Shown: positions 27,924 through 64,000, numbered from the stretch's first letter. The stretch is 64,000 bases of DNA from Candidatus Moraniibacteriota bacterium (GCA_027031495.1 JALVQA010000004.1:56070-120069); one strand, 5' to 3'. Translations and numbers: made by a program. The notes: generated from the sequence alone by a model not told the origin.

Positions 27924-27995
<72 letters not shown>

Positions 27996-29397: not shown

Positions 29398-29445
29398 CAC
29401 AGGAAGGATTGCGTATTTATTGATACGACTGATCTGATACTGTGT

Positions 29446-29517: not shown

Positions 29518-29589
29518 CAGTCGCGGAACATGGAGTGCTGTCATGGAATGGGTAATTGGTCGTTCCGTGTACTCCATGTTTTGTTTTAG

Positions 29590-29662: not shown

Positions 29663-29715
29663 CAAATTTAACACTTGATTTATTTTGCGTTTTCGCATAG
29701 AATAAACTGTGTGAT

Positions 29716-29787
29716 GCGAGTGTCGTATAATGGCTATTATGCCACCTTGCCATGGTGGAGACGGCGGTTCGATTCCGCTCACTCGCT
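29716..29787 (+). tRNA. tRNA-Gly (anticodon GCC)
   Basis: The acceptor is GCGAGTG/CACTCGC, the anticodon stem CCACC/GGTGG with loop TTGCCAT, and the T-arm GGCGG-TTCGATT-CCGCT. Confidence 0.85.
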
Positions 29788-29851
29788 CAAGAAGCAAAAG
29801 GCGCTATGAACGTGTTCTAGCGCCTTTTGCTCATGTTGTTATACTGGTTAT

Positions 29852-44102: not shown

Positions 44103-45384
44103 GTCTAGTGTTTTTTCTATCGTCTTTTTCATTCTGTATGCTCGCAAGTAACACAAGGAGCCAAAAAATAAGCGCAAGATCATTTTTCCAGTAGGGCGTG
44201 TCAACAAGCCCATGTATCATAATGATGCCAAGTGCACACATAGCACCGAGTACAATGATATCATCTTTTGCGTATTTTTTCTTTTGTACAATGCAAATGT
44301 ACTTTTTACCTATGAGCAATACGACAAGTATAAAGCCACAGAGGCCGATTATGCCAGTCTGAAGCCAAAAAGCAAGAAAGAGATTGTGTGGTTGTGGAAC
44401 TGCCCATTCCGGATAAGGTGGGTAGTTTTTTTGATATGCAAGGTAGACAAATTGAAAATTACCTGGTCCAACACCAAAAAGCGGGTGATCCGCAATAATG
44501 TCAGTGGCAACATGCCAGATTACATATCGTGATGCGAGAGAAGAGTGGTGTGAATATGTAAAGAAGTCTTGTATGCGTGGTGTGCGCCAAAGTGTAGCAA
44601 GTACAAGGGAAAATATTAGGGAAAGTGCGAGCATGCTACCGGTAAACATACGCCATGACCGATAGTATGATGCGAAAAAAAGCACAAGGCCACCACTTGC
44701 CGCGATAATGCCGCCAAGGGAGCGTGTGAGTACAAGTACGATGCCGGTAAGTATAAGTGCAAAGACGATAAATATATACGTTTTCCTTGAGTGATGATAA
44801 TGTCGTACCAATATATAATCGGTAAACATGAGTGGAATAATCGGTGCCAGTGACATGGCAAGGTGATTAGGGGAGAGGTAGAACGCGCGCAAACGGTGGT
44901 CATAGGTAAAAATATCTAAAAAAGCATAAATAATTGCTGCAGTAGCGACAAAGGCACCACCGACGATTAGCGCACGGAAGATGTGTATGCGCGAGATGAT
45001 TGCGTGCCGCAGCGCATAGTGCACGCAGAGCAAAAACACAAACGGCACCACAAACCACCCCTTCACAATTCCAAGTCCGGTGTGCCACGCGCCGCCGGCG
45101 GCTGTAGAGAGAAATGTGCCTATAGTCATGAGCGTCCACGCTATAAGCACAATCCGCAGCGGCGTGTTATCTCGCAAAAAGTGCTGAAAGCACCTGCGCG
45201 CGCCACTCTTTGTTTTTGTGCCCCAAGCGTGCCACAGTGTTATACCGACGATTATTAACACCAATACCTCCAATACATTTGTTGGTATGTCAAAAATGGA
45301 AAATCGTATCAGATATAGTGGTGATGCAAGAATTGTGAGCGGAATTAGTGTGCGAAGGGTAATTTTTGTAAAATGATGTAGCAT
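44005..45384 (-). CDS. O-antigen ligase / Wzy_C-family polytopic membrane protein
   Basis: It has 10 or more TM helices and a periplasmic loop with QPHNLFLAFWLQTGIIGL. Its 3' end overlaps the mreB 3' end by 98 bp (convergent), so the true stop may be earlier. Confidence 0.6.
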   Translation of the reverse strand: MLHHFTKITLRTLIPLTILASPLYLIRFSIFDIPTNVLEVLVLIIVGITLWHAWGTKTKSGARRCFQHFLRDNTPLRIVLIAWTLMTIGTFLSTAAGGAWHTGLGIVKGWFVVPFVFLLCVHYALRHAIISRIHIFRALIVGGAFVATAAIIYAFLDIFTYDHRLRAFYLSPNHLAMSLAPIIPLMFTDYILVRHYHHSRKTYIFIVFALILTGIVLVLTRSLGGIIAASGGLVLFFASYYRSWRMFTGSMLALSLIFSLVLATLWRTPRIQDFFTYSHHSSLASRYVIWHVATDIIADHPLFGVGPGNFQFVYLAYQKNYPPYPEWAVPQPHNLFLAFWLQTGIIGLCGFILVVLLIGKKYICIVQKKKYAKDDIIVLGAMCALGIIMIHGLVDTPYWKNDLALIFWLLVLLASIQNEKDDRKNTRLIYQQVENVCKHQDAQAPYLCRAPHKAVGLLQ

Positions 45385-46200
45385 TTATTGTAGCGGACTT
45401 TTAATATTTTTTAGCTTTGGATTTGTTATTTTGGCGTATATTTGTGTCGTGCGGATATTTGTGTGTCCCAGAAGCTCTTGAACATAGCGCATATCGGTGC
45501 CATTTTCAAGGAGGTGAGTAGCAAAAGAATGTCGCAGAGAATGAAAAGTGGCAGGTTTTTTAATCTGTGCTTTTATCAGGCTCTTGCGAAACATTTTTTG
45601 CAATGAAGTGGTTGTCAGTTTATCGCCACGATTAGAACCGAAGACAAAATCGTTCGCATTTTTCCCGGCAATAATATTCCGCAAGTCATTTTGCAGCCTC
45701 TCGGGTAGTACTGAGATCCTGTCTTTCTTTCCCTTTGCCTCTTTGATATGCACTATCAGTTCATCAATATCCAAATCGACCACACGCAAGTTAATGACTT
45801 CGCTAACACGCAATCCACAGGCATAGCCGAGTGAAATCATAAGGCGGTATTTTACATTATCAGTTGCGTTGATAATTTTTTCAATTTCTTCTCGCGACAA
45901 AACAACTGGCAATTTCTTATTTCTTTTGGCAAATTTTAAATCAATCTTCTGTGGATCTTTCAAAACTTCCGCATATAAAAATTTTACGGCATTGAGTGCA
46001 AGGTTGATGGTTTGTGGAGATTGCTTGCGTTTATGCTTATCAAGCAAAAATTCCTCAATAGCTTTTCGCTTATCTTTGATTCTGTTTTTCTTAGAAAAGG
46101 TGATATAATCTTTAATGTAAAGCAAATAGGCTTTACGCGTTTTAGGGGAGTAGTTGCGCAGTCGCAACAGCCGGTCGGTTTTCTCTAAAATTTTATCCAT
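45385..46200 (-). CDS. Tyrosine site-specific recombinase (XerC/XerD-like integrase)
   Basis: The C-terminal catalytic motifs are HSLRHSFATHLLENGTDMRYVQELLGHTNIRTTQIYAKI (R..H..R..Y). The N-terminal core-binding domain is present. Confidence 0.85.
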   Translation of the reverse strand: MDKILEKTDRLLRLRNYSPKTRKAYLLYIKDYITFSKKNRIKDKRKAIEEFLLDKHKRKQSPQTINLALNAVKFLYAEVLKDPQKIDLKFAKRNKKLPVVLSREEIEKIINATDNVKYRLMISLGYACGLRVSEVINLRVVDLDIDELIVHIKEAKGKKDRISVLPERLQNDLRNIIAGKNANDFVFGSNRGDKLTTTSLQKMFRKSLIKAQIKKPATFHSLRHSFATHLLENGTDMRYVQELLGHTNIRTTQIYAKITNPKLKNIKSPLQ

Positions 46201-46349
46201 ACAGGAATTGTAGCAAAAGTTTGTATAACATACAATCTTTTGCTACAATTCAGACGTAGAGTGTAGATAAAAACCAGTTATATTCAATTACGAGCCAGCC
46301 AGCCATACAAAGCATTACATTTATATAATTTAATCAAATATCAATTCTT

Positions 46350-46757
46350 ATGAGTGAATTTAATCATGTTGCAAAAAATCTTCAAGAAGAAAAGAAAGTA
46401 GTTTTTACTGCCCAATCTTGCAAGAACTTCCATCAAAGAATGTTAATCTGTAAGCACGCCTTTGAACAAGGTGTTATTCCCATAAACCCTTTTAATGTAT
46501 TCGGTTATTATCTCTATGAATTAGTTGAAAGAGACTTAGTTAGAAATGGAAATAATAACCTCATGAAAAGATGTGATGAATTATGGGTTTATGGAGAAAT
46601 TAGTGATGGAGTTCTTGCTGAAATTCAAATGTTTAAAAAATTAGGCAAACCTATAAGATTTTTTGACATTTCAAAATTACCTAAAGAAGTCAAAGAGATT
46701 TCTAAACACGAATTGATATTTGAAGATGAAGTAAGAGAATTTGCTGATTCTATCTAA
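46350..46757 (+). CDS. Hypothetical cytoplasmic protein (135 aa) bracketed by a 13-bp perfect inverted repeat
   Basis: It is AT-rich. TTACGAGCCAGCC (46288-46300) upstream pairs with GGCTGGCTCGTAA (46760-46772) immediately after the stop. Confidence 0.45.
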   Translation: MSEFNHVAKNLQEEKKVVFTAQSCKNFHQRMLICKHAFEQGVIPINPFNVFGYYLYELVERDLVRNGNNNLMKRCDELWVYGEISDGVLAEIQMFKKLGKPIRFFDISKLPKEVKEISKHELIFEDEVREFADSI

Positions 46758-46944
46758 CGGGCTGGCTCGTAACTCTGAAATTTTCCTTCGGAACGTTGCA
46801 CTAAATTTCAGCCATTCGGGGAATATAACAAGGGATATGAGGTTACGAAGTCTTGCAGACTTCTTCACCCAAATTGCTATCGCAACTTCAGATATTCAGA
46901 AACGTTATATGAAATAAAATTTTAATTTTAACCACATTCAAAAA

Positions 46945-47289
46945 ATGAAAAAAATAAATCTGATTGTAATTTCAAAGATAATAGCATCCATTATTCTAAT
47001 ATGTCAGTTCATCCCTTCTACTTGGTGGACAATATTTGTTATGTGGGCATACTCTGACTTAGCAAATTTACTATCTTTCCCATTGGAATACCTTTTATTG
47101 ATTGGTATGTATTTAATGCCACTATCTTTTTCTATCTTTTCTATTTTATATTCTAAACATTTCTACTCTGATAATAACTATAAAAAATATATAAGTAGAT
47201 TGTTATTTGTTTTCAATTTGTTATTACTCATTTTTATGATTCACTTTTTCATTTCAGCAGGGATTGGAATGTATCCGGCATTTGACTAA
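46945..47289 (+). CDS. Hypothetical small membrane protein (114 aa)
   Basis: It has 3-4 hydrophobic helices and sits in the AT-rich islet next to the recombinase. Confidence 0.4.
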   Translation: MKKINLIVISKIIASIILICQFIPSTWWTIFVMWAYSDLANLLSFPLEYLLLIGMYLMPLSFSIFSILYSKHFYSDNNYKKYISRLLFVFNLLLLIFMIHFFISAGIGMYPAFD

Positions 47290-47836
47290 AGCTAACGAAA
47301 ATTAAAAATTTACGTCATATAACAGCGTGTATCCGGTTCGGCAGATTTGACGCAATTAGGTTCAAAAGGAATGTCAAATCAGCCTCTCCCAAATTTCGCA
47401 AAAAACAATTAGATTTTGGTCTAGGATACTTTAGCACCTAAACCATGCTAAAATGGTTAGCTACTCTTGTGCCTATGATTGATATTGGTCGCGTTGGTGG
47501 ACGCATTGAACATGACGAAGAGTCAGAGATTGTCTTATGAGGGAAATTCGCGAAGAGATTGTGTGATACTAAAAAACAGCGCCACCATCTTAAATCAGTA
47601 CAGGAGAAAGAGGATACAGATGTAGAAGATTATATCTTTGCTACAGAATTGTCCGAGGACGTTGATGAATTAAGTTTACACGAAGGACGCGCTATGCGGT
47701 TCTTTGCGCTCGGGGAGCTATTAGTTTTGGATATTGTGCGCCACACTATAGGAGTGTCATTATCAACTTCTTAAACCATAGACATGGTGATAAATAGTGT
47801 GGGCTTTTAGCTTTAGGCGCTATTTGTTCTGAGGGA

Positions 47837-49108
47837 TTAATCACTTCCCTTTGCGTAGGTGCTTGCGGCAAGGATGATGAGGAGAAGGGGGAGCGTGTGA
47901 ACGCTAAAGAGCATGGTGTCAAAGAGTCCGTGCGTGCTGAGAATGACAAGACTTGTGGCGCCGGCGAGACCGTGAGCGCGTGGATGGTAGCGCAGGAAGC
48001 GCGCAATGGCGGTGAGAATAAGCGCAATCCAGATGAGTGCTGTGAAGATGCCTGTTTCTGCAGCAATGTCCAGGTAGAGGTTGTGTGCGTAGTACGGGTC
48101 GCGGTAGTCAGCCTGCGGATTGACGGTGAGGGGATAGTTACCAAGACCGACGCCGAGAAGCGGATGGTCTATGATGATGTTGGCGGCATCCCGCCAAATG
48201 AGAACGCGCTGGGTGATGGAGGAGTCCGGGTTGCTGATGATGGAAAAGGCGCGTGCGCCAAGAGGTGTGCTAAAGAGAAGAATGCCAACAACACCAAGTG
48301 TGCCAAGTGTAGTGAGGAAGAGTTTGCGCACAGAGATGGTGCGCGCTCGGATAAGGAGCGTTGCAACTGCAAAGAGTGCGCCAACAAAGAGTGCGACGTA
48401 GGCGCCACGTGTGAACGTGGTGAGTGTGGCGCCGATGAGAAGCGCACTGCCAATGAGCCACAGTAGACGTTTCTTGCGTGTGTGTGCAGTGACGGCGGCA
48501 GCCAGCGCGAATGGTACAAGCATCTCAAAGAAGAACGCGGCCACGTGCGGATCTGGGAAGAAGCCGACGGCGCGCAGGTAGTCTGTGCCGGCGATGTTGA
48601 CGTAGGCGCTGGAGTACGTCGCGACCGTGTGCGCAAACGTCTGCCCGAGGAAGAGTGGTGCGATAAGCGCTCCCCAGAAGTGCATAACGGCATCTGCACC
48701 AACAATAAACTGCGCCGCCCATAGGGTGAGTGCGATGGCGGCAGCGGCGATGCCACCAAGAAGTGCCGTGCGCAGCAGCTGTGCCGCTGCTGCCCACGAG
48801 CGTACCGTGCCGGTAATGACAAAAAACAGCACAAAGAAATTCAGAAGAAATATGAATTTTCGTATAAACCATGTGTAGTCGTGTGCATTGAAAGATGAAA
48901 GAAGTGTGCTTGCGAGAAAGGCGGCAATGAGCAGTGGGATAGATGAGCGTGTAAAAGAAAGTGTACTGGTGACGGTAATGTGTATAAGAAAGGCAAAAAA
49001 GGCAAATGTGATAAGAATGCGAATGAGCGCAATATCAAAACCGCTCAATGGCGAAAGAGCTATCTGAAATGGAATAATAAATGCTAAGAGTGTGAGAAAT
49101 TTCTGCAT
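47837..49108 (-). CDS. O-antigen ligase (WaaL/Wzy_C family) encoded in a strikingly GC-rich segment
   Basis: TFTRGAYVALFVGALF and HAHNLYLDIAAETGI are Wzy_C signatures. Local GC is roughly 55-65% against about 40% for the flanks, hence the many spurious overlapping ORFs on both strands. Confidence 0.7.
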   Translation of the reverse strand: MQKFLTLLAFIIPFQIALSPLSGFDIALIRILITFAFFAFLIHITVTSTLSFTRSSIPLLIAAFLASTLLSSFNAHDYTWFIRKFIFLLNFFVLFFVITGTVRSWAAAAQLLRTALLGGIAAAAIALTLWAAQFIVGADAVMHFWGALIAPLFLGQTFAHTVATYSSAYVNIAGTDYLRAVGFFPDPHVAAFFFEMLVPFALAAAVTAHTRKKRLLWLIGSALLIGATLTTFTRGAYVALFVGALFAVATLLIRARTISVRKLFLTTLGTLGVVGILLFSTPLGARAFSIISNPDSSITQRVLIWRDAANIIIDHPLLGVGLGNYPLTVNPQADYRDPYYAHNLYLDIAAETGIFTALIWIALILTAIARFLRYHPRAHGLAGATSLVILSTHGLFDTMLFSVHTLPLLLIILAASTYAKGSD

Positions 49109-49143
49109 GATAATACAAACGGCTTCTTTTCAGAGTAGCATGT

Positions 49144-50019
49144 TTAGCGCCATCGTCGCCAGAGTGCGCGCATAATACGCTGTGCTGTTGCGTAAAGAAT
49201 AGTATGGTGCGTACGAAAATAGAGGTCTTGCCCAGTATCGTAATGACGTTTTTGTTCTGTAAAACTTGCAAAACTCTGACCACTTTTATGAATGACTGTT
49301 ACGCGTGGATCAAAAATAATCTTTCTCTTTTGTTTTTTAAGGCGTGTGCAGAGATCAGTGTCTTCAAAATAGAGAAAGTAGCGCTCATCAAAACTGCCAA
49401 TTGACATAAAATCATGTACCCGTACGAACATTGCCGCGCCACTAACCCAGTCAACGGATGTTGGCGTTGATGGCAATTTTCTTTTGAGAATTTTTTCGCG
49501 CAAAATACGCAAGAGTGTCGGTTTTTTGCCGGCGCAGTAAGGATCGTATACACCGTGTTCATCTACGAGTTGTGGTGCAACAACGGCAACAGACCTGTCG
49601 ACAAAGTGTGTAAAGAGTGGCGCAACTGTTTGTATAAGAAATGCATCGGGGTTAAGAATTGCATGAATGTGAACATATTTCTCTGCAGAATATTTTTGTG
49701 CAATGGTTGCAATAGCACGATTGTGACCGGCGCCAAAGCCGCGATTTTTTTGTGCAATGATAGTAAGTGGCAGTGTAGTTTTCAGAGAGAGGTTTTCATG
49801 TGAGTGATTGACGACAATTATCTCTGCGAGATGTGGAATGTAGTGTTCCGCACGTGCAACGCACTCTTTTATGATTTTTGCGGTGTTAAAATTGACGATA
49901 CTCGCCGTTACGATGAAGCGTTGCTCTTTAGCAGTGGGAGATGTAGTGTTTGCGCGCGTTGCGGAAATCTTTGAATGCGCGACGGACGTGTGGTGCAAGT
50001 TTTTTGTCGGATGGGGCAT
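49144..50019 (-). CDS. Family 2 glycosyltransferase
   Basis: FIVTASIVNFNTAKIIKECV...IIVVNHSHENLS...NRGFGAGHNRA is a GT2 fold (DxD context). The listed start overlaps the upstream gene by 92 bp, so the true start is probably a later non-ATG codon. Confidence 0.75.
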   Translation of the reverse strand: MPHPTKNLHHTSVAHSKISATRANTTSPTAKEQRFIVTASIVNFNTAKIIKECVARAEHYIPHLAEIIVVNHSHENLSLKTTLPLTIIAQKNRGFGAGHNRAIATIAQKYSAEKYVHIHAILNPDAFLIQTVAPLFTHFVDRSVAVVAPQLVDEHGVYDPYCAGKKPTLLRILREKILKRKLPSTPTSVDWVSGAAMFVRVHDFMSIGSFDERYFLYFEDTDLCTRLKKQKRKIIFDPRVTVIHKSGQSFASFTEQKRHYDTGQDLYFRTHHTILYATAQRIMRALWRRWR

Positions 50020-50812
50020 AGTAACCTTTTAGTATGCGAAGAGGGATAATAATTTTGTAGAGTATTTTATGATACCACGATGCGTGTGCCGTAAAAAAGA
50101 GAAGTGCGCTCAAGACGAGCCAATATACTTTGAGCGGTCTATTGTGCGGCGCCTCACTTACCTCATAGTGAAGTGCTCTTGCGCGGGGCACAACGCCGAC
50201 GACAAAGTGTTTTTTGCGTGCACAGTATGAAAAATCAGCATCTTCGTAGTAGAGAAAGTATGATTCATTGAGTAGGCCGATTTCCTTAAACACATCTTTG
50301 TGAATACTTACAACACATCCGGTTGCACTCTCTGTCGGTATGACGGTTGTTGTGTGTGTGGTGTGTGGGGTGGTTGTGGTATGCATGATGCGCATAGCGT
50401 GCCAGTTAACTGTCGCACCGGCATACCAAATCTTACCAGATGGCTCTGTGATAATTGGACATAAAACTGACGGTTTTGCACATTTTTCGCCGGCACGTAC
50501 AAGGCGCGCAATAGTTGTTGTTTCAATGATTGCATCGCTATTGATGAGGATGACGTAATCAGCGCCACGTTCAAGGGCAAAGCGAATGCCAACGTTATTG
50601 CCGGCTGCAAAGCCGATATTTTTTGAATTTCTTATAAACTCAGCATGCTGAAATCGCTCTCGTGCTTCTTCGAGAGAGCCGTCTGTAGATGCGTTATCTA
50701 CAACAACTACGTGAAAGTCACCATTGTACTGCGTGCGAAAAACGGCGTTAAGACATGCATCAAGAGTCTCACCGCTATTATAGTTGAGAATAACCGCGTA
50801 AACTTTTGGCAT
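49928..50812 (-). CDS. Family 2 glycosyltransferase
   Basis: YAVILNYNSGETLDACLNAV..VVVVDNASTDGS...NIGFAAGNNVGIRFALERGADYVILINSDA is the canonical GT2 N-terminal pattern. Confidence 0.85.
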   Translation of the reverse strand: MPKVYAVILNYNSGETLDACLNAVFRTQYNGDFHVVVVDNASTDGSLEEARERFQHAEFIRNSKNIGFAAGNNVGIRFALERGADYVILINSDAIIETTTIARLVRAGEKCAKPSVLCPIITEPSGKIWYAGATVNWHAMRIMHTTTTPHTTHTTTVIPTESATGCVVSIHKDVFKEIGLLNESYFLYYEDADFSYCARKKHFVVGVVPRARALHYEVSEAPHNRPLKVYWLVLSALLFFTAHASWYHKILYKIIIPLRILKGYYAPSDKKLAPHVRRAFKDFRNARKHYISHC

Positions 50813-50847
50813 ACGCTTTTTTTATTATGCTTTTTATGTTTTGTTTT

Positions 50848-52284
50848 TTACGCGATATCTTTTTTTGAAAAAAAGATTGCGCGAATTTCTTCCATACTAA
50901 TTGCACGTGTAAACCAGAGTGCAACAGCGTATACAGCTATTGAGAGTGCGATAACCGTAAAGATATTGAGTGACATTGTAAAAAAGAGTGTCAATGCCAT
51001 GATACCACTTGCGCCAATAATATGTAATAGCTGTGGGATACGAGGCATGTATCTGATGTGTCGTGCGACAAGAAACATGCTTAGTGCTACAACAAGACCT
51101 TCTGTTGCAAATGACATGCCTGCTGCGGCAATGTAAGAGAAGTGGGGAATGAGGAGCCAGTTGCCCGTGACGTTAAAAAATGCACAAACGGCAAGTGCAC
51201 TCATGAGGTACTTTTGGAGATTGCCAACAAGGAGAAGTGTTGTAAAGAACTGTCCAAGAAAAATGAAAAGAAGCGCGCCGGCGAGAATGCGGAGAACGGT
51301 TGCCGATGCCTCGTAATTAAAATCAGGGCCACCGACGATACGCATAATATCTTCCGCGCGAAACAAAATGCCTGTGACGATGGGAAGGATGATAGCAGAA
51401 AAGACCTTTAGTGTTTTATTCGCAAAATGCGTAAATTGTACACGATTCTGTGTAAGCGTGCGTGAGAGAATAGGAAGCATGAGGCCCATGACCATGGCAG
51501 GGAAGAATATAAGGTTTTCCATGATTTTATATGCCGCACCATAAATACCAACTGCAATGTCATTTTGAAGAAAAGAGAGAAGAATCATGTCAACCTTAAA
51601 GTAAAAGAACGTAATAATGGCGGCGATACCCATCGGAAGAGATTGTGCAAGAAATGTGCGCCAGTACGTCGGATCCCATACGAGGCGGAGTTTTACATAG
51701 CGACGGACGAGAAATGTGATAATGAGAAAGTTAAATCCCATTGCCGCAACAACGCCGGCAACAAGCCATATGAAACCGGCGTCAAAATACATTACGCCGG
51801 CAATCCATGCGACCTGAAGAACCTTGCCAAAAAACTCTGTAATGACAACGAGGTCCATGCGCAGATGTTTTTGAAAAACGCTATTGAGGAGGCCATAACT
51901 GGAAGAAAAAAGAAAGGCAACACCAATAAGAATAATGGCAAAACGTACATCATGCGTATACGGTAAAAACGGCACTACCGTCGCAGCAATAGCAAAAACG
52001 AAAAAAGAGATAATAATGCGCAGTGTGAAAATGCGTTCGATTGTTTCTTGTTCTTCCTCTACTGGTTGTCTGCCGATATCGCGTGCAGTGATATGATAGA
52101 GACCGAAGTCAGCAAATGCGACAAGAAGAGCGAAGAAGGCGAGGACTGTTGCGTATGCACCAAAACCGGCCGTACCAAGATAGCGTGTTACAAGACCAAT
52201 GCCAACGAGTGCAAGTGCCGTTGACGCGACTTTCATTACAACGTTGACAATAACGTTGTAAGCAAGTTGTTTGCCGAGTGCCAT
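50848..52284 (-). CDS. Polysaccharide flippase (Wzx / MOP superfamily)
   Basis: It has about 14 TM helices. The N-terminal KQLAYNVIVNVVMKVASTALALVGIGLVTRYLGTAGFGAY is typical of Wzx. Confidence 0.85.
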   Translation of the reverse strand: MALGKQLAYNVIVNVVMKVASTALALVGIGLVTRYLGTAGFGAYATVLAFFALLVAFADFGLYHITARDIGRQPVEEEQETIERIFTLRIIISFFVFAIAATVVPFLPYTHDVRFAIILIGVAFLFSSSYGLLNSVFQKHLRMDLVVITEFFGKVLQVAWIAGVMYFDAGFIWLVAGVVAAMGFNFLIITFLVRRYVKLRLVWDPTYWRTFLAQSLPMGIAAIITFFYFKVDMILLSFLQNDIAVGIYGAAYKIMENLIFFPAMVMGLMLPILSRTLTQNRVQFTHFANKTLKVFSAIILPIVTGILFRAEDIMRIVGGPDFNYEASATVLRILAGALLFIFLGQFFTTLLLVGNLQKYLMSALAVCAFFNVTGNWLLIPHFSYIAAAGMSFATEGLVVALSMFLVARHIRYMPRIPQLLHIIGASGIMALTLFFTMSLNIFTVIALSIAVYAVALWFTRAISMEEIRAIFFSKKDIA

Positions 52285-55818: not shown

Positions 55819-57348
55819 ATGCTTACTCTATTGCAAAATTTGCTCAAAGTCGTTCTCGCACTTATTGTATTGGTTGCTGCGTATTTTGGCGTGCAACTTG
55901 GTATAGATGATCATCTTTCCAATCAAAATCCAACAACTGCAATTAATGTTAATGTGAGTGACACTGTTGGAGCTGGGGGGAATGGTACTACTCCTGCAAC
56001 ACCGTCACCACCAGCAGGAAATGCTGGTGGCAGTCATTCAGCTGACACATCATTAACTGCTAATAATGGTAATAGCAGTAACAGTAGCGATACAACTGAT
56101 AGTGCGACTAGTGATACAGCTGGCATAGGTAGTATTGGCATAGGTGGTGTTTCACGTGTTGTTATTGGTGATTCTGACGATGATAGCACTGTAGGGAATC
56201 AGTACGTTGATAATAGCGATCATGCAACACCAGAAGTTTTTACTGGTAGTAAGATGATGGTTGGCGGTAATGATGGTACTGTGCGCTACAGTGGCGTTTC
56301 GGCACAGGAGGCTGCGGCAAGTGGTTTTGTTAATGGTGTTTCCAAAAAGAGCATTTGGGATGAGCGGCTTGTACGTCATGTTGCGTCTGCGTACGATGTT
56401 TTTCGCTGGATGAATAAAGTGCAAAACGGCGCTCAAATTAAAGGTGGTGGTTTTGATAGTTGGGAGAATCGTCCAAAAGCAAATGACCCTCTACCGGATC
56501 CGGGTGGATGGACAATGGAGCCATTGGCATATGAGTGGATGATTGATTTTTGTAATCGTGCAAAAGTGGATTGTTGGCTGACGGTACCGGCAGCAACAGC
56601 GGATGATCCGACATTTCCGGAAAAATTTGCAACTCTTGTGAAAAATCAACTTGATCCATCTTTGCATGTATGGGTGGAGTGGGCAAATGAGGCATGGAAT
56701 AGTGGTAACTATGCTGGTGGATGGATTGATGAGAACAAAGGCGGTGACCGTCCCGGGTACACGGCATGCGCAGCGGCGCAGCTGTGGGCCGGCTTTGACA
56801 AGGTTTATGGCAAGGACGATAAACGTGTCGTGCGTGTGTTGGCATGGCAGGCCGGTAATCCTGGCTCTGGGCGCACGCTGTTTGAAAGACTTAATGATCC
56901 ATCATGTAATCCGACAGGTGCAAAGCCGGATGTCTATGCAATTGCGCCATACGTACCAGGTAATCCGGCTGATGCGTCAACATACAATTATGAAAAAATG
57001 AGTGGCGAGCTACATAGTTATGTGGAGGCGGCAATCAGGGAGAATAAGGCGTTGGCTGATGAGCATGGCATTCCACTCGTTACATATGAAGGCGGGCAAC
57101 AATTTTTTGGTAGCCCCGGTGTTGCAACTCTTAATCGCAGTCAAGACATGTATGATTTCTACATCGACTACATGAACACACTTGCGAAAAACGGCATCAG
57201 GTTATTTATGCAATATGTTGGCGTGCCGGAGGAGTATGCAGAAACGGCAGCATATGGTGATTCTGAGGATATTGACAACCCAATGGCATCGCCAAAGTAT
57301 AGAGCGATTATTAATTGGCGTAAGGCGAACGGTATTGCACGCCCATGA
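55819..57348 (+). CDS. Membrane-anchored secreted protein with Ser/Thr/Gly-rich linker and a TIM-barrel glycoside-hydrolase-like domain
   Basis: There is an N-terminal TM segment and about 100 aa of STGN-rich linker. HVWVEWANEAWNSGNY resembles the catalytic-acid strand of clan GH-A hydrolases. The gene is moderately GC-rich. Confidence 0.45.
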   Translation: MLTLLQNLLKVVLALIVLVAAYFGVQLGIDDHLSNQNPTTAINVNVSDTVGAGGNGTTPATPSPPAGNAGGSHSADTSLTANNGNSSNSSDTTDSATSDTAGIGSIGIGGVSRVVIGDSDDDSTVGNQYVDNSDHATPEVFTGSKMMVGGNDGTVRYSGVSAQEAAASGFVNGVSKKSIWDERLVRHVASAYDVFRWMNKVQNGAQIKGGGFDSWENRPKANDPLPDPGGWTMEPLAYEWMIDFCNRAKVDCWLTVPAATADDPTFPEKFATLVKNQLDPSLHVWVEWANEAWNSGNYAGGWIDENKGGDRPGYTACAAAQLWAGFDKVYGKDDKRVVRVLAWQAGNPGSGRTLFERLNDPSCNPTGAKPDVYAIAPYVPGNPADASTYNYEKMSGELHSYVEAAIRENKALADEHGIPLVTYEGGQQFFGSPGVATLNRSQDMYDFYIDYMNTLAKNGIRLFMQYVGVPEEYAETAAYGDSEDIDNPMASPKYRAIINWRKANGIARP

Positions 57349-57548: not shown

Positions 57549-57559
57549 ACCTCTGCGTG

Positions 57560-57648
57560 CGGAGAGGGTGGGATTCGAACCCACGGACCCGCGGGTGCAG
57601 GTCAACTGATTTCGAATCAGTCCCGTTCAACCACTCCGGCACCTCTCC
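57560..57648 (-). tRNA. tRNA-Ser (anticodon CGA), long variable arm
   Basis: Reverse-complement fold: the acceptor is GGAGAGG/CCTCTCC, the anticodon stem ACTGA/TCAGT with loop TTCGAAA, and the T-arm GTGGG-TTCGAAT-CCCAC. Confidence 0.8.
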
Positions 57649-57802: not shown

Positions 57803-59197
57803 ATGAAAAAGAAATCTCGTTCATTTATTGTTCTTGCAATGATTTTGCTTATTGGTAGCATTCTTTCCGGCTGTGGCGGAGAGAAAAAGTCTCCAATGTA
57901 TGATACAAATTTGGAGATCTGGGGCGTTTTTGATGATTCCGGCGATTATGGTACGATTCTTTCAGCATACCAACAACTAAATCCATTTATAACGAGTGTT
58001 ACATATCGCAAATTTCCGATAGAGGACTATGAGCGTGAGCTTTTGGATGCTTTGGCCGCCGGTAATGGTCCTGATATTTTTATGATTCAAAATTCATGGC
58101 TTCCTGATTATCTTAATAAGATTATACCGGCACCACAAGAATTTATAAATGAAAAGAAATTGCGTGAAACATTTGTAGATGTTGTCGCTGATGATTTTCT
58201 TGTTGATGGCAAGGTTTATGGTGTTCCTTTGTCTGTTGATTCTCTTGCTCTATACTATAATAAAGATTTTTTTAATGCCGCAGGGATCACGCATCCACCG
58301 AAAACATGGGAAGAATTTAGTAGTGATGTGGAAAAGATGACGCAGATTGATCAATTTGGTAATATTGTGCGTGCTGGGGCTGCGATCGGCACAGGTAAAA
58401 ACATAAATCGGAGTGCTGATATTATTACACTCCTCTTCTTGCAGAGTGGTATTGAAATGGTCAGCGAAAGTGAAAAAGAGGCAAACTTTCTTCGTTATGT
58501 GAAGAAGGGTGACGAATATGTTAATGCAGCGGAAAATGCTCTCAAATTCTATACAAATTTTGCATCACCGTCACGCTCTGTCTATACGTGGAATCGACGA
58601 CAACATTATTCACTCGATGCGTTTACAGAAGGAACAGTTGGCATGATGTTTAATTACTCGTGGCATTACAATACAATCAGGCGGAAAAATGAAAAGTTGC
58701 GTTTTGGTGTCGCACCTGTGCCGCAGCTTGATGAAAGTGCGCCACGAAATGTTGCGAACTACTGGGCTTTTGTTGTTTCTAAAAATAAGAAAGCATTTAC
58801 AAGTTCTGGTCGTCAATTACCGGAAAATGTACGCAGACATGAGGCGTGGGAGTTCTTGAAGTACTTAACAATGCGCAATGGTTCTTCTTTTAAGATTGTA
58901 CATGCTCTATCGAAAAAGGCAAAAAAGATGCCACTTTCCATTGATCCTGCAAAAGAGTATCTTGCGCTTACGCACAAACCGGCGGCGCGCCGTGATATTA
59001 TAGAGGAGCAGAAAGATGATCCCGTACTCGGCATTTTTGCGCGCGGTAATCTAATTGCGCGGAGTTGGCATCGCAAAAATGCTGATGCTGTCGATAAGAT
59101 TTTTGTTGATATGATTGAAAATGTAAATCTCGGCAAACAGACGATTGCACAAGCCCTTGAAACGGCACAATCGCGTATTACACAGTTATTGAGATAG
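57803..59197 (+). CDS. ABC transporter extracellular solute-binding lipoprotein (family 1, sugar/oligosaccharide type)
   Basis: There is a lipoprotein signal (LSGCGG), and the protein is 464 aa with the SBP_bac_1 pattern. No permease or ATPase follows within the window. Confidence 0.7.
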   Translation: MKKKSRSFIVLAMILLIGSILSGCGGEKKSPMYDTNLEIWGVFDDSGDYGTILSAYQQLNPFITSVTYRKFPIEDYERELLDALAAGNGPDIFMIQNSWLPDYLNKIIPAPQEFINEKKLRETFVDVVADDFLVDGKVYGVPLSVDSLALYYNKDFFNAAGITHPPKTWEEFSSDVEKMTQIDQFGNIVRAGAAIGTGKNINRSADIITLLFLQSGIEMVSESEKEANFLRYVKKGDEYVNAAENALKFYTNFASPSRSVYTWNRRQHYSLDAFTEGTVGMMFNYSWHYNTIRRKNEKLRFGVAPVPQLDESAPRNVANYWAFVVSKNKKAFTSSGRQLPENVRRHEAWEFLKYLTMRNGSSFKIVHALSKKAKKMPLSIDPAKEYLALTHKPAARRDIIEEQKDDPVLGIFARGNLIARSWHRKNADAVDKIFVDMIENVNLGKQTIAQALETAQSRITQLLR

Positions 59198-59240: not shown

Positions 59241-60356
59241 TTGTTAAGTATGAATAAATTGTTTGCATTTCTTGTTTCTGGTTTTATGACCATTGCCGTA
59301 GTAGCAGGGTTCTTTAACAGTGTGGCGTATGCCGAAAATTACAATGTGCAGAGTATTATCGGTACATATAAGACTGCGAGCAGTGTTTGCGCTGACGAAT
59401 CAAAAGTTGGTCATCTTGTACCATGCTCGCGACATTGTGATAATCCTGCGACGCCAAATGATGAAACAGAACCATGCAGTGTATGTCATATCATTGTTCT
59501 TGGGCATAATATCGTGCAATACATTCTCTACATAGCCGTTTTTGTTGCACTTGCCGTTATTACATTTGCTGGTGTAATGTACATTGTTTCAGCAGGTGAC
59601 CAAGGTATGATTACGACGGCAAAAGCTGCCCTAAAATATGCGCTCTTTGGTATGGTTTTTATACTTGCGGCATGGGTGATTATTAATACACTTATTACGG
59701 TCCTTTTGAAGCCAAACAAAGCAGGTGGTTCTCTGAAAGGTGGATGGAGTCAGTATTATTGTGAGAGTACTGACACCGGCGCTGGCACAAATCCTGACAC
59801 CGGCGCTGGCACAAATCCTGACACCGGCGCTGGCACAAATCCTGACACCGGCGCTGGCACAAATCCTGATAATAAAAAGCGCCCGGATAGTTGGATACCA
59901 AACCCGGATTCACATAGTGGAGTGATGTATTGCGCTGTTAAGCCATTTGCGAAAAATCCTGATCTTTTTATAGAGATGAACCGACATGAGTGTTACACAG
60001 ATGAGAATCATTGTCGAAATAAATTTAACAGTGTGGAGAATATGGAGAATAATGTCATGTGCATGAAATTTGATGCCAATACACCAAAGGTTAGACCTTA
60101 CAACTCATACAAAGTTTATCTCGATTTCATGGTAAAAGATAGTAAAGGTAGGGATGTGCGTATTTACGTTAACAAATACTATCCGCCATCAGATGATCCA
60201 TTAAATCCACGAAAGCGGTGTTTAGATGGAGTAGAAAAAGAATATGGGGACGCGTTAGATCAATATGGTGACAAAGGCAATCTTACTATCTGTGAGGGTT
60301 CGCTGTGGGCACCAAATGCAGATACTCAAAGGGATGCACAAAATACAACAAGATAG
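59241..60356 (+). CDS. Large member of the pilin-like family: signal peptide, VirB2/TrbC-like two-helix pilin domain, 4x DTGAGTNP repeat, Cys-rich ~190-aa C-terminal domain
   Basis: The pilin-like core is VQYILYIAVFVALAVITFAGVMYIVSAGDQGMITTAKAALKYALFGMVFILAAWVI. It is followed by a tandem repeat and a C-terminal domain with 8 Cys. Confidence 0.6.
   Translation: MLSMNKLFAFLVSGFMTIAVVAGFFNSVAYAENYNVQSIIGTYKTASSVCADESKVGHLVPCSRHCDNPATPNDETEPCSVCHIIVLGHNIVQYILYIAVFVALAVITFAGVMYIVSAGDQGMITTAKAALKYALFGMVFILAAWVIINTLITVLLKPNKAGGSLKGGWSQYYCESTDTGAGTNPDTGAGTNPDTGAGTNPDTGAGTNPDNKKRPDSWIPNPDSHSGVMYCAVKPFAKNPDLFIEMNRHECYTDENHCRNKFNSVENMENNVMCMKFDANTPKVRPYNSYKVYLDFMVKDSKGRDVRIYVNKYYPPSDDPLNPRKRCLDGVEKEYGDALDQYGDKGNLTICEGSLWAPNADTQRDAQNTTR
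59772..59867 (+). repeat. Perfect 4x 24-bp tandem repeat (GACACCGGCGCTGGCACAAATCCT) in-frame within the CDS
   Basis: The four copies are identical at the nucleotide level and encode (DTGAGTNP)x4. Confidence 0.9.
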
Positions 60357-60451
60357 AGTTGTGCTTTGTGCAAACGGTGTAGTAGTTGTTATAGTTTGTT
60401 TATGTGAGATTGTATGATAAGAAATACTGATCTTTTTAAATAAAAATTTCT

Positions 60452-61042
60452 ATGAAAAAAATACTTTTTACTGTCATGTTATGTCTGTTGGCTCTGCCAG
60501 CTACTAGTGCGATGGCGCAAAAAATTGGCGCAGAGTACGAAAACCCTTTAAAATTTAATACGGCTGATAAATTGATTACGAGTTTTCTTGATGCTATGCA
60601 GTTAACGATTGGCACACTGGCGGTTGTTTTCATTGTTATTGGCGGTATTTTATATATCACATCTGCCGGCGATCAGAATCGCATGACTGCGGCAAAGGGT
60701 GCATTTACTGCTGCAATCATTGGTCTCGCCATCGCTATCGCTGCACCAAGTTTTTTGCGTGAGATTTACAAGATCCTTAATGCAAAGGATGTGCCGGGAA
60801 GTGTTGCCAAATCGCCAACCATTGCTCAAATTGTGACAAATGTGCTGGAGTTTCTCCTTGGTATTGCTGGCACTATTGCTCTCATTGCACTTATTATTGG
60901 CGGTATCATGTATCTTGCTGCTGGTGGTGATGAAAGTCGTCTGGATGCCGGCAAGAAGATATTTACCAATGCGATTATTGGTATTGTTATTATCATGATA
61001 TCGCTCGTTATTGTGCAAACCATTGGCGAATTCTTTGCATAG
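60452..61042 (+). CDS. Secreted protein with two tandem VirB2/TrbC-like pilin domains
   Basis: There is a signal peptide. Domain 1 is TLAVVFIVIGGILYITSAGDQNRMTAAKGAFTAAIIGLAIAIA and domain 2 is TIALIALIIGGIMYLAAGGDESRLDAGKKIFTNAIIGIVIIMISLVIV. Confidence 0.6.
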   Translation: MKKILFTVMLCLLALPATSAMAQKIGAEYENPLKFNTADKLITSFLDAMQLTIGTLAVVFIVIGGILYITSAGDQNRMTAAKGAFTAAIIGLAIAIAAPSFLREIYKILNAKDVPGSVAKSPTIAQIVTNVLEFLLGIAGTIALIALIIGGIMYLAAGGDESRLDAGKKIFTNAIIGIVIIMISLVIVQTIGEFFA

Positions 61043-61054
61043 GTAAGAGGCAGT

Positions 61055-61342
61055 ATGAGTAATCTTTTTCTTTTTCCTATTGCGCATGCCGGTGTTGTTG
61101 CAGATGCAACGCCTATATCCGTTGTACTTGCACGCATGCTTGATGATGTATTGACAATTGCTGGAACAATATGTATACTAGCAATAGTGATCTCTGGTAT
61201 TTTATATTTAGTTTCTGCAAAGACGGGAGATGAACGCCTGCAGGGTGTTGCAAAGAAAGGTTTTGCAGCGTCGGTTGTCGGCGCTGTTATGATTGTCGGG
61301 TCATTGGTTCTTATGCGCACGATTGCACACTTTTTACAGTAA
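61055..61342 (+). CDS. VirB2/TrbC-like pilin-fold protein (95 aa)
   Basis: TICILAIVISGILYLVSAKTGDERLQGVAKKGFAASVVGAVMIVGSLVLM. Confidence 0.55.
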   Translation: MSNLFLFPIAHAGVVADATPISVVLARMLDDVLTIAGTICILAIVISGILYLVSAKTGDERLQGVAKKGFAASVVGAVMIVGSLVLMRTIAHFLQ

Positions 61343-61425
61343 TGTGCTGTTGAGAATCGCTGTATGTGTGATGTATGCGGGAATGTTATTAGATAATAAG
61401 GAGTAATTCTTTACGTAACATAATT

Positions 61426-61803
61426 ATGAAAAATATGTCATTTATTAAAAGTGGTGTTGCTGCAAGTATTGTGAGTGTGTTCTCATTGACAGCGCAGAGC
61501 ACACATGCTCAGCTTCTTAGCCCTGATGTGCTGAAAGATGAGACAGGCCTTCCTCTCAACAACATCATTGACATCCTTACACATATCATGCAGTGGATGC
61601 TGGCACTAGTATCTGTATTGGCGGTGATTAGTTTTGTTATTTCTGGTATCCTCTACCTTACTGCTGGCGGTGATGAAGATCAACTTGGCCGTGCACGACG
61701 CGCTTTTGTTGGGGCTATTTTTGGTGTTATTGTATCTCTGGTTGGCCTTATTGTTATTCAGGCAGTGCAGAAAGTTCTCTCTGGTGAGGGTACAGTATTT
61801 TAA
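61426..61803 (+). CDS. VirB2/TrbC-like pilin-fold protein (125 aa)
   Basis: A signal peptide is followed by MQWMLALVSVLAVISFVISGILYLTAGGDEDQLGRARRAFVGAIFGVIVSLVGLIVI. Confidence 0.6.
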   Translation: MKNMSFIKSGVAASIVSVFSLTAQSTHAQLLSPDVLKDETGLPLNNIIDILTHIMQWMLALVSVLAVISFVISGILYLTAGGDEDQLGRARRAFVGAIFGVIVSLVGLIVIQAVQKVLSGEGTVF

Positions 61804-61945
61804 TTTGTCGCATAAACAAATCATGTTATAATGGAAGTGTGTGTTGATATGGTTTTCTGTCAAGAGGTGAACAAAGATATAAATAAAAAAATAATATTCT
61901 CATTATGAATGAGATAAATATGCAAAAGAAAGGAGGTGGAAACAT

Positions 61946-62320
61946 ATGAAAAAGGCTATCTATAGTGCTGTAACATCGCTACTTGCTTTGCCTGCGCTTG
62001 TACGTGCTGGTGATGCTGGCGCTGGTGCTGGCGCTGGAAAATATATACCTGACGTTGACCTTCCAGAGGGCGATGGTACCGGTGTTCTTGGTATTGCAAG
62101 AAAGATCATGAAGTGGCTGCTGACACTTGTTGGTATTATCGCTATTATCGCGTTTGTTATTGCTGGTATTCTATACTTGACGGCAGCAGGTGACGAAGAC
62201 CAGATTGGAAGAGCGAAGAAGGCAATGATTAACTCTATCATCGGTGTGATTGTTGCATTGCTCGGTCTTATCGTTCTTAAGGCTGTTGACAATATGCTTA
62301 GAGCGAAAGATGAATGGTAA
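61946..62320 (+). CDS. VirB2/TrbC-like pilin-fold protein (124 aa) with (GA)n segment
   Basis: There is a signal peptide and a GDAGAGAGAGK segment encoded by a GCTGGY microsatellite. It is followed by MKWLLTLVGIIAIIAFVIAGILYLTAAGDEDQIGRAKKAMINSIIGVIVALLGLIVL. Confidence 0.6.
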   Translation: MKKAIYSAVTSLLALPALVRAGDAGAGAGAGKYIPDVDLPEGDGTGVLGIARKIMKWLLTLVGIIAIIAFVIAGILYLTAAGDEDQIGRAKKAMINSIIGVIVALLGLIVLKAVDNMLRAKDEW

Positions 62321-62417
62321 ATCTCCTCGTTGCAACGAGAGAAAACAAGTGAGGGTTCCCCCTTGCTTGTTTTTTTTGTGGTACGATGTATACTATAAGG
62401 TAGTATAATATTTTTTT

Positions 62418-62831
62418 ATGTATAAAATTAAAATGAAAATTCTTGCAACAATTCTTATGATGATTGCACTTCCCGCATCAGTATATGCTTTTGATGCAGG
62501 TGATGTTGCAAGTGCAGTCGGTGATGCGGTCGGTAATTTTAATATGGGAATTGGTTATGCTGGCATTAAAACCTTTGGCTTTAAGCCAACGACAATTACG
62601 GGTGTTGTCACCGCTACTATGAAATGGCTTATCGGCATCGTCGGCTCGGTCGCAATTATCATGTTTGTTGTTGCCGGTATTATGTATATGACATCGGCTG
62701 GCGATGAAACACAGGCGGAAAATGCAAAAAAAACGGCACGTTACGCGCTTTATGGCACAATTGTTGCACTTGGCAGTATGGTTGTTCTTCAAGCAATCTC
62801 CGTGATGCTAAAAGGGTCACCGGATTTTTAA
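62418..62831 (+). CDS. VirB2/TrbC-like pilin-fold protein (137 aa)
   Basis: A signal peptide is followed by MKWLIGIVGSVAIIMFVVAGIMYMTSAGDETQAENAKKTARYALYGTIVALGSMVVL. Confidence 0.6.
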   Translation: MYKIKMKILATILMMIALPASVYAFDAGDVASAVGDAVGNFNMGIGYAGIKTFGFKPTTITGVVTATMKWLIGIVGSVAIIMFVVAGIMYMTSAGDETQAENAKKTARYALYGTIVALGSMVVLQAISVMLKGSPDF

Positions 62832-62855
62832 TTTTTTACGTTTTAATTTTTAATT

Positions 62856-63248
62856 ATGCGTATCGTTAGAAATATATTTTTCGCTAGTTTATTATCTCTT
62901 GTGTTCATTCATGCAGCTTTTGGCTTTGAATGTCCTCAAGGCGATGGCTTAAAAATGAAAAAGATCGCTGGTGTGTGCGTGCAGGATTCTGGTCTTTCCG
63001 AACAGAAGATAGAGGTTATTTTAGTCACTGTTTCAAGCTGGCTTGCGTTTATGTTCGGCTCTGTTGCGATTGTTGTTCTGCTTGTCTGTGGCTTTCAATA
63101 CCTTCTTGCTGCCGGTGATGACACGCAGGCAGAGAATGCGAAGCGGTGCATAAAGTGGTCTGTTGTCGGGATTCTTGTTGCCGGCCTTGCATTTACAATT
63201 ACAAAGACGATTGCGTGGCTCGTTATGGGACTTCCGCCACTGTTTTAG
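62856..63248 (+). CDS. VirB2/TrbC-like pilin-fold protein (130 aa)
   Basis: A signal peptide is followed by SSWLAFMFGSVAIVVLLVCGFQYLLAAGDDTQAENAKRCIKWSVVGILVAGLAFTI. Confidence 0.6.
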   Translation: MRIVRNIFFASLLSLVFIHAAFGFECPQGDGLKMKKIAGVCVQDSGLSEQKIEVILVTVSSWLAFMFGSVAIVVLLVCGFQYLLAAGDDTQAENAKRCIKWSVVGILVAGLAFTITKTIAWLVMGLPPLF

Positions 63249-63282
63249 TGTTGGATTATTTTTGTATCATAAATAGATATAT

Positions 63283-63733
63283 GATGAGATACCTTTCTTT
63301 AATAGCACTTCTTTTCTCTTTTCTCTCCGTGTTTTTTGTTTATAACATGTCCTATACGTATGCGCTTAGTGGTAAAGGTGAAGCAGAATGTCTCGCGCAG
63401 GGCGGCAAAGTTGTCGGTACGCTTTGTTTGCCAACAAAACAAAAAACTGACCTTCCCGACAAGAAGATTCCTGCCATTTTAGCAAAAATTTCAGATTGGA
63501 TTGCCTATGTTTTTGGTTCTCTTGCCATCATTACATTTATTATCTGTGGCTTTCAATACCTTCTTGCTGCCGGTGATGACACGCAGGCGGAGAATGCGAA
63601 GCGCTGTATGAAGTGGGCCATAATTGGTGTTGCTACTGCAGGATCTGCAATGGTAGTTATGAGAGTTTTAGAAAGTCTCATAAATGCGTCATGGTCTCCG
63701 TTTTCGTGGTCTATGGTGCTCCCGGGATTATAA
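63283..63733 (+). CDS. VirB2/TrbC-like pilin-fold protein (150 aa), close paralog of the preceding gene
   Basis: The start was set at the internal MMRYLSLIALLF to avoid overlap. The core ISDWIAYVFGSLAIITFIICGFQYLLAAGDDTQAENAKRCMKWAIIGVATAG shares about 55 bp of near-identical DNA with the 62856 gene. Confidence 0.55.
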
Positions 63734-63752
63734 AGTTAATAGCAAAGAAGCA

Positions 63753-64000
63753 ATGAAATATTTTATTTTTTCACTAGTACTTATTGCACTTTCTTATGCA
63801 CTAACAGCTAGTGCCCTTGATGCGAATTGTCTTGCAAAGGGTGGTGTCTTAAACGGATGGATGCAGGGCGTTCACTGTGCAAATGACGCGTCAGGTCTTG
63901 AAAATACAAAAATAAAAAATATTATCAATGCCATAATGCTATGGATTATTACGCTTGTTGGCATTCTTTCCATTATCGCATTTGCCATTGCCGGTATTTT
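63753..64000 (+). CDS. VirB2/TrbC-like pilin-fold protein, 5' part (runs off window)
   Basis: MKYFIFSLVLIALSYALTASA (signal) is followed by INAIMLWIITLVGILSIIAFAIAGI, the start of the shared hydrophobic core. Confidence 0.5.
   Translation, partial: MKYFIFSLVLIALSYALTASALDANCLAKGGVLNGWMQGVHCANDASGLENTKIKNIINAIMLWIITLVGILSIIAFAIAGI

Follow-up and report, generated by a model that had tools for sequence, protein, structure and literature searches.

The DNA analysed here is a stretch of 64,000 nt from a Candidatus Moraniibacteriota bacterium (GCA_027031495.1 JALVQA010000004.1:56070-120069), called the window in what follows. At its 3' end lies a tandem array of nine successive pilin genes, all on the + strand and together carrying ten copies of a pilin-like domain, which runs from position 59250 to position 64148, the last gene ending 148 nt beyond the window. 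The array was sought by listing the open reading frames (ORFs) over 56-64 kb. Judged from their sequences, its members almost certainly belong to the VirB2/TrbC-type pilin-like family. An earlier note on this DNA had described nine same-strand ORFs with a shared core motif and had compared them to VirB2/TrbC pilins rather than to type IV pilins, which is borne out by the ORF listing, by the alignment of the ten domains, and by the profile searches described below.

The family assignment is carried by the T4SS_pilin profile (Pfam ID PF18895). All eight genes that are complete in the window score above its curated cutoff (27.4-75.6 bits versus 26.6), with per-protein E-values of 4e-6 to 3e-21, far past chance, and the ninth has a precomputed PF18895 match on an identical public contig. 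The absence of any profile match, which had been named beforehand as an outcome that would speak against a pilin identity, therefore did not occur. The TrbC/VirB2 profile (Pfam ID PF04956) gives weak matches in five further genes besides gene 2, genes 3, 5, 6, and 8 among them (15.7-21.3 bits, below the cutoff), and no match in genes 1, 4, and 7. No NCBIfam model is matched at or above its cutoff by the array proteins. Eight of the nine match the "Mbov_0395 family pilin-like conjugal transfer protein" model (NF045849) at 16-32 bits (best 32.1 and 31.8), below the cutoff of 40, and these matches span nearly the full 80-residue model with E-values of 7e-8 to 7e-3.

Two other identities were tried and rejected. 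A type IV pilin identity fails because a regular expression search over the first 60 residues of each of the nine proteins detects no class III leader (G-F-T-L-I-E), and because no type IV pilin (PilA/ComGC) family is among the Pfam matches of the array genes. A bacteriocin or holin identity, which the earlier note had raised as an assignment that downstream genes might impose, was not found either: no such family matches the pilin genes, and the only trace is a match of a downstream 160-aa ORF to Bacteriocin_IIc at 0.0097, below the threshold.

The note had described nine or more genes, with the array still running at the window edge. A metagenome contig from the European Nucleotide Archive (L001), which carries gene 7, is identical to window positions 62385-64000 (1616 nt, 0 mismatches), and on this contig the ninth gene ends at window-equivalent position 64148 and the next gene is convergent. 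The array thus consists of exactly nine genes. No further copy of the family is found elsewhere in the window with a hidden Markov model built from the family. In the public gene calls, pilin 1 starts at the ATG at 59250, a TTG at 59241 lying three codons upstream. A 195-aa ORF that starts with a GTG at 63146 and overlaps gene 7 is passed over in the gene calls in favour of gene 8 as given in Table 1.

Table 1. Pilin genes of the array, the repeat within pilin 1, and the genes on either side of the array
Feature	Coordinates	Strand	Remarks
Pilin 1	59250..60356	+	368 aa; PF18895 33.7 bits versus cutoff 26.6
Perfect tandem repeat in pilin 1	59770..59869	+	24 bp x 4.2 copies, 100% matches, score 200 (Tandem Repeats Finder); encodes TGAGTNPD x4
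Pilin 2	60452..61042	+	196 aa; double pilin; PF18895 75.6 bits in two stretches; PF04956 48.1 bits versus cutoff 27.9
Pilin 3	61055..61342	+	95 aa; short class, minimal N-terminus; PF18895 28.1 bits; orthologs A3, Bu2
Pilin 4	61426..61803	+	125 aa; PF18895 27.4 bits; orthologs 60-66% identical
Pilin 5	61946..62320	+	124 aa; standard class; PF18895 43.6 bits
Pilin 6	62418..62831	+	137 aa; PF18895 37.4 bits; orthologs A6, Bd2
Pilin 7	62856..63248	+	130 aa; PF18895 44.3 bits; orthologs A7, Bd3
Pilin 8	63284..63733	+	149 aa (gene call on public contig); PF18895 52.9 bits; orthologs A8, Bd4
Pilin 9, 5' part	63753..64000	+	Full gene 131 aa on L001; precomputed PF18895 match; last in array
Orphan solute-binding lipoprotein SBP_bac_1	57803..59197	+	PF01547/PF13416; lipobox LSGC; 52 bp upstream of pilin 1
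Convergent multi-transmembrane protein	L001 1846-3117 (window-equivalent 64230-65501)	-	423 aa; N-terminal multi-transmembrane region, coiled coil, beta-rich C-terminus
Protein after the 423-aa gene	L001 3147-3884	-	245 aa; convergent to array

A MAFFT alignment of the ten domains, with gene 2 split in two, shows an invariant G, Y, G, D, and later G and a nearly invariant A-K, the turn following the pattern G-x-x-Y-x-x-x-(A/G)-G-D-(E/D)...A-K-K. Pairwise local identity among the nine proteins is 22-51% (mean 34%), and the N-terminal segments, which are presumably exposed, diverge most in both length and sequence. According to the hydropathy profiles, every protein has a hydrophobic signal-peptide-like N-terminal leader followed by two long hydrophobic segments, of which gene 2 encodes four. 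The AlphaFold2 structure for pilin 5, predicted with 75 aligned sequences, comprises a leader helix, a disordered spacer, a helix at residues 47-79, a four-residue turn (AAGD), and a second helix at residues 84-123, and its core is predicted with a local distance difference test score (pLDDT) of about 90.

Pilin 1 is the most elaborate member. It is predicted to begin with a signal peptide, which is followed by a Cys-rich N-terminal segment, the PF18895 hairpin at about residues 87-152, the linker formed by the repeat listed in Table 1, and a C-terminal domain at about residues 205-355. Twelve Cys residues are present in all: five lie in the highly conserved N-terminal segment (C47, C59, C63, C76, and C79), six after residue 205 in the C-terminal domain, and an invariant Cys171 stands just before that domain. 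The C-terminal domain is predicted as a compact alpha/beta fold (pLDDT 82-92), for which there is no fold match in the PDB and for which only 3 matches exist among 1.84 billion representative proteins. The orthologs of pilin 1 are P0002, P0003, P0005, and P0006; the globular domain is present in four homologs, and in the related locus L004, described below, a low-complexity tail takes its place. We regard it as a lineage-restricted orphan domain. The perfect repeat and the Cys-rich C-terminal domain had both been seen in the earlier note, and both are real features of this gene; the role as a tip adhesin that was attached to the domain is speculative.

Pilin 2 is a fused double pilin, as had also been proposed; its orthologs bear tails rich in G, S, and N, and the copy in the window has no tail. 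Pilin 5 has the most relatives elsewhere, with 361 homologs, and PF18895 is present in 120 of the 120 homologs listed. Pilin 7 has a Cys pair in its N-terminal segment and one Cys in each helix near the turn, and pilin 8 shows the same pattern. The Cys pairs in the N-terminal segments and the Cys-rich C-terminal domain would fit an extracytoplasmic location.

The relatives of the array were scanned in one genome per species with an alignment of 8 close sequences, which gave 209 relatives of the standard pilin, and the best 80 loci were examined. Two related genomes contain the locus in a form directly comparable with the window. In GCA_054013435.1 (L003), the same locus contains the gene for the solute-binding protein (SBP) followed by nine pilin genes. 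In GCA_054024315.1 (L004), the SBP gene is followed by five pilin genes, and the other four (ranks 2-5) are found 6 kb upstream, beside a tyrosine recombinase. An all-against-all BLASTP comparison of the window, L003, and L004 places the best cross-genome match at the gene of the same rank for 27 of 27 proteins, with identities of 46-71% between orthologs versus 22-51% between paralogs. These same-rank matches in three genomes indicate that the nine paralogs predate the divergence of the genomes and that each has been retained. No recent duplicates occur within the array, and neither lineage-specific expansion nor turnover of the paralogs is seen, all nine genes having 1:1 counterparts in L003 and L004.

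The wider set of loci shows the same classes of subunits. Same-strand arrays of 3-9 pilin genes are present in 79 of the 80 best related loci; most of them contain one double-domain member, and many start with a long Cys-rich member of the pilin 1 type and also have one that is about 90 aa long. Because the double-domain and long members recur, the features that the earlier note had singled out belong to the usual make-up of these arrays. Nearly all of the closest loci and homologs bear the label Moranbacteria, Moraniibacteriota, Parcubacteria, or Patescibacteria, which agrees with the suggestion that the organism is like those of the candidate phyla radiation (CPR).

Some of the related loci have peculiarities of their own. 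The same syntenic locus also occurs in many third-party metagenome-assembled genomes under the name "uncultured Bdellovibrionales/Pseudobdellovibrionaceae" and in one under the name "Bathyarchaeia archaeon"; these names probably reflect taxonomic mislabelling or binning errors. In the one relative whose pilins 2-5 have been relocated upstream as a block (L004 1114-6487 and L005), the two sub-arrays are separated by a gene for a 554-aa protein that carries a Walker A motif but matches no Pfam family. In another relative (L085), a gene for a DUF559 endonuclease-like protein interrupts the pilin array.

Along the array of the window, the intergenic spacers measure 95, 12, 83, 142, 97, 24, 35, and 19 bp. 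The earlier note had assigned each gene its own AT-rich spacer and had taken this as compatible with independently expressed alternative subunits. This description suits some of the spacers, which are 83-142 bp long and AT-rich, but four are only 12-35 bp long and hence too short for a separate promoter. There is no terminator-like site on the + strand inside the array. Promoter-like matches in the array reach only about twice the shuffled expectation, and we did not use them as evidence. Four junctions with spacers of just 12-35 bp, together with the lack of internal terminators, suggest that the nine genes are probably co-transcribed. Taken together with the 1:1 orthology and the recurrent classes, this organisation favours specialised subunits over antigenic variants. 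The view that we favour on this sequence evidence is that the nine genes represent a fixed, anciently diverged set of subunit classes, not interchangeable variants.

We consider it likely that these are co-expressed, specialised subunits, from which a type IV secretion system (T4SS) encoded elsewhere would build, at the interface with the host, a heteromeric pilus or a structure that lines a channel. Each product would be exported by its Sec-type signal peptide and would enter the membrane as a hairpin of two helices. A topology with the N- and C-termini facing outward and the turn in the cytoplasm, later in the lumen, is suggested by the signal peptide, by the turn with its positive and acidic residues, and by the Cys-rich ends. 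The F/T-pilus structures are the established model for the placement of termini and turn in a VirB2-type filament, and in such a filament both ends of the protein, along with a C-terminal domain where one is present, would be exposed on the outside, the turn pointing into the lumen. The putative subunit classes are a Cys-rich pilin with a displayed C-terminal domain, a fused double pilin, a minimal pilin of about 90 aa, and several standard pilins of about 120-150 aa. Pilin 1 might then be a domain-displaying minor or tip subunit, and the double pilin might act as a covalent dimer. Assembly would be carried out by a monoderm-type VirB4 T4SS (like those of the mating pair formation class MPF-FATA) encoded elsewhere in the genome, and the resulting pilus or channel lining would serve where the cell touches its host. 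In particular, we give even chances to a genuine extracellular pilus of heteromeric make-up.

Several observations weigh against an assembly of this kind. The TrbC/VirB2 model itself is passed only by gene 2. A profile of 23 family members searched against all PDB sequences finds no solved pilin and nothing below E = 0.3. Fold comparison weighs neither way, such searches being uninformative because helical hairpins match too widely: a Foldseek search with the hairpin places the Aeropyrum pernix conjugation pilus (PDB ID 8dfu) at rank 3 with a target-normalised TM-score of 0.62, which is not significant (E = 2.8). As no solved pilin is matched by sequence, the VirB2 relationship rests on curated sequence profiles, not on structure. 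No VirB4, VirD4, VirB6, VirB3/PrgI, or relaxase family is found in the window ORFs scanned or in the next 9 kb. Likewise, no VirB4 is found within 10 kb of the 80 related arrays by a Walker A screen of ORFs of at least 400 aa followed by Pfam checks of the candidates, which proved to be PilB, FtsK, UvrA, and a tetratricopeptide repeat protein. According to reviews, moreover, no pilus has been seen in any patescibacterium.

From the absence of VirB4 and VirD4 genes upstream, the earlier note had suggested a filament system uncoupled from a classical T4SS. The absence itself stands, for the window and for the 9 kb of contig past its end, but functional uncoupling is not supported, because T4SS-like genes adjoin the arrays of some relatives. 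In 7 related loci of another subclade, none of which has a VirB4 within 10 kb, the genes directly before the array encode a LysM-CHAP hydrolase, a small product of 158 aa, a TrbL/VirB6-like protein (about 700 aa), and a low-complexity protein of 560 aa (for example, L052 3417-12619 and L085 7746-16948). The TrbL/VirB6-like protein scores 25.3 bits against the cutoff of 25.9 on Pfam ID PF04610; its homologs carry precomputed matches to PF04610 and PF19590, and one of them is named VirB6. Among the best 120 homologs of this protein, none is on the 189-kb contig to which the window belongs, and tblastn searches with the VirB6-like, hydrolase, and downstream families give no match in the window. 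Distance from virB4 is also common in published genomes: VirB2-like pilins occur in 1,948 VirB4-containing assemblies of Patescibacteria and lie near virB4 in only 1,135 of them, about 58% (PMC12102498).

The genes adjoining the array bear on a second reading. The SBP gene upstream (Table 1) has no adjoining permease or ATPase of an ATP-binding cassette (ABC) transporter. A member of the SBP_bac_1 family is found upstream on the same strand, mostly within 260 bp, in 52 of the 69 related loci with enough upstream DNA, and the lipoprotein may be functionally linked to the pilin array. Downstream, neither the 423-aa nor the 245-aa protein has a Pfam or NCBIfam match. A profile of the 423-aa family identifies it in 16 related loci, in 13 of which it lies 64-122 bp past the last pilin gene. 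Beyond the 245-aa gene, L001 carries tsaE, a peptidyl-prolyl isomerase gene, polA, a DUF3048 gene, and holA; infB, nusA, tig, and clpP are the housekeeping genes that recur near related arrays.

These neighbours would suit a set of non-pilus membrane proteins, such as a channel, a platform, an uptake device working with the SBP lipoprotein, or a holin- or bacteriocin-related set, in which the likeness to VirB2 would be no more than a shared hairpin. The recurrent orphan SBP gene, the convergent multi-transmembrane protein in 16 loci, the generic fold, and the lack of a T4SS ATPase nearby would agree with such proteins, as would the fact that monoderm T4SSs are normally without pili (PMC12102498, PMC12857230). 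We nevertheless think it unlikely, as the curated pilin profiles match (PF18895 in all genes and PF04956 in gene 2), the sub-threshold NF045849 matches are consistent across eight of the nine genes, and no bacteriocin or holin family matches the pilin genes. The VirB6-like and hydrolase genes beside the arrays of some relatives, and the position of the Saccharibacteria array inside a T4SS locus (PMC10633639), likewise argue for a pilin function.

That the paralogs are alternative, independently expressed major subunits serving antigenic or host-range variation, as proposed for Anaplasma and Bartonella and suggested for Patescibacteria (PMC12102498), is quite improbable: their divergence (mean about 34%, maximum 51%, close to the published 25% and 54%), the strong variation of the presumably exposed N-terminal segments, and the longer AT-rich spacers would agree with it, but strict 1:1 positional orthology of nine genes in three genomes with orthologs closer than paralogs, subunit classes that recur across 80 loci, four spacers of 12-35 bp without an internal terminator, and the lack of recent duplicates speak against it.

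The reading as co-expressed, specialised subunits can be extended to a broader proposal, which we put forward as tentative and on balance doubtful. The array might be a conserved "parts list" for a heteromeric monoderm T4SS filament made up of the covalently fused double pilin, the minimal pilin, the several standard pilins, and a pilin whose lineage-specific, disulfide-rich domain is displayed as an adhesin. This filament would act together with the SBP, and possibly with the downstream multi-transmembrane protein, as a host-contact or uptake device, and its subunits would stem from monoderm elements like the Mycoplasma integrative and conjugative element (ICE) rather than from diderm T4SSs. 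The Mycoplasma ICE family NF045849, from a monoderm MPF-FATA-type element, is matched by eight of the nine proteins near full length but below the cutoff, so that the array proteins are not members of it and the similarity is a lead only. As an observation aside, these sub-cutoff matches hint that monoderm MPF-FATA-type elements carry VirB2-like proteins, contrary to the usual statement.

Arrays of this kind have been described before. In a search of 3,035 Patescibacteria genomes, for which the profiles used included PF04956 and PF18895, Quiñonero-Coronel et al. (2025) reported 441 arrays of 2-11 pilin genes in 383 assemblies, especially in Microgenomatia and Saccharimonadia, with a within-array identity of 25% on average and 54% at most; the arrays were suggested to aid adaptation to different hosts (PMC12102498). 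An array was defined there as at least two pilin genes in tandem or one non-pilin gene apart (PMC12102498), and the nine contiguous same-strand genes found here form an array in this sense, near the upper end of the published size range. Proximity to virB4 or other T4SS genes, which is not strictly part of that definition, is not seen here, as no T4SS family occurs in the scanned window ORFs or in the 9 kb downstream.

The closest known systems are the VirB2 arrays of other Patescibacteria, such as those of Southlakia epibionticum ML1 (SEML1_0006-0019) and TM7x (the "Sec secreted array"), which share with the present array the Pfam family, the tandem same-strand arrangement, the low identity, the chromosomal and origin-proximal position, and, in all likelihood, a monoderm CPR host. 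The Southlakia array is part of a T4SS locus, whereas here at least 35 kb upstream and 9 kb downstream are without a recognisable T4SS gene. Transposon sequencing showed that S. epibionticum requires its T4SS locus, the six-gene pilin array included, to grow as an epibiont (Wang et al. 2023; PMC10633639, PMC12857230). The function of patescibacterial T4SSs has been described as unknown (PMC11665869), and a pilus in monoderm Patescibacteria has been called an intriguing possibility only (PMC12857230). The published array accounts compared here do not mention a fused double pilin, a pilin with a globular C-terminal domain, a strict order of orthologs, or an SBP neighbour.

More distant systems are similar in part. 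The diderm TrbC/VirB2/TraA pilins (Pfam ID PF04956) also combine a signal peptide with a two-helix hairpin of similar length, and gene 2 passes their cutoff; in contrast, most array members stay below that threshold, show no sequence match to solved pilins, and belong to a monoderm host, and there are nine paralogs with no adjacent VirB3-VirB11 genes instead of one major pilin plus VirB5. Anaplasma phagocytophilum and Bartonella (Trw) likewise have several divergent VirB2-type genes in tandem, and these have been interpreted as variable surface subunits (cited in PMC12102498); the paralogs described here keep their orthology from one genome to the next, a stability that speaks for fixed, specialised roles. 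The archaeal Ced/Ted DNA-import pilins (e.g., PDB ID 8dfu) are VirB2-like hairpin pilins of cells that also have no outer membrane, but the fold match is not significant, as given above, and no sequence relationship is shown.

The array is thus already published in kind and adds no new type of system, but it provides a clean nine-gene example of anciently fixed orthologous pilin classes. New here are the 1:1 ortholog classes, the recurrence of the double and long members, the evidence for co-transcription, and the linkage to the SBP gene. In the only species tested, the epibiotic lifestyle requires the patescibacterial T4SS and its pilin array. The ortholog classes, which argue for a heteromeric structure with specialised subunits, raise the questions of which subunit is the major one, which one forms the tip, and whether the SBP takes part.

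The window is chromosomal, containing dnaA (23733-25175, - strand), dnaN, infB, ruvB, mreB, a class A penicillin-binding protein gene, a murA-like gene, a Zn ABC transporter, and eleven tRNA genes. The region at 20544-27162, with ruvB, dnaN, dnaA, and infB, is likely the replication origin region, the minimum of the cumulative GC skew falling at about 22-24 kb, beside dnaA. With the origin there, the array would be about 35 kb from it and co-oriented with replication. The yidC and rnpA genes, at about 52.3-53.5 kb, precede the array by 6 kb. T4SS genes are located near dnaA, dnaN, and rnpA in several patescibacterial classes (PMC12102498).

Six of the tRNA genes form a cluster at 27924-29788 on the + strand (Gly, Leu, Val, Phe, Met, and Gly), and the other five are found elsewhere in the window, including tRNA-Ser (57559-57648, - strand) just upstream of the SBP gene. 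Two ORFs on the + strand belong to no Pfam family: one of 509 aa (55819-57348) with an N-terminal transmembrane segment and a low-complexity region rich in S, T, and N, and one of 415 aa (29852-31099). Large surface proteins are encoded at 13225-19765 on the - strand, namely, a 948-aa FAD-dependent oxidoreductase fused to SLH and Big_13 domains and two proteins with Lamin-tail and PKD domains. A surface-glycan cluster at 44005-52284 on the - strand comprises two Wzy_C proteins (O-antigen ligase or PglL-like), two to three GT2 glycosyltransferases, and a Wzx-type flippase, and this cluster could glycosylate surface proteins such as the pilins.

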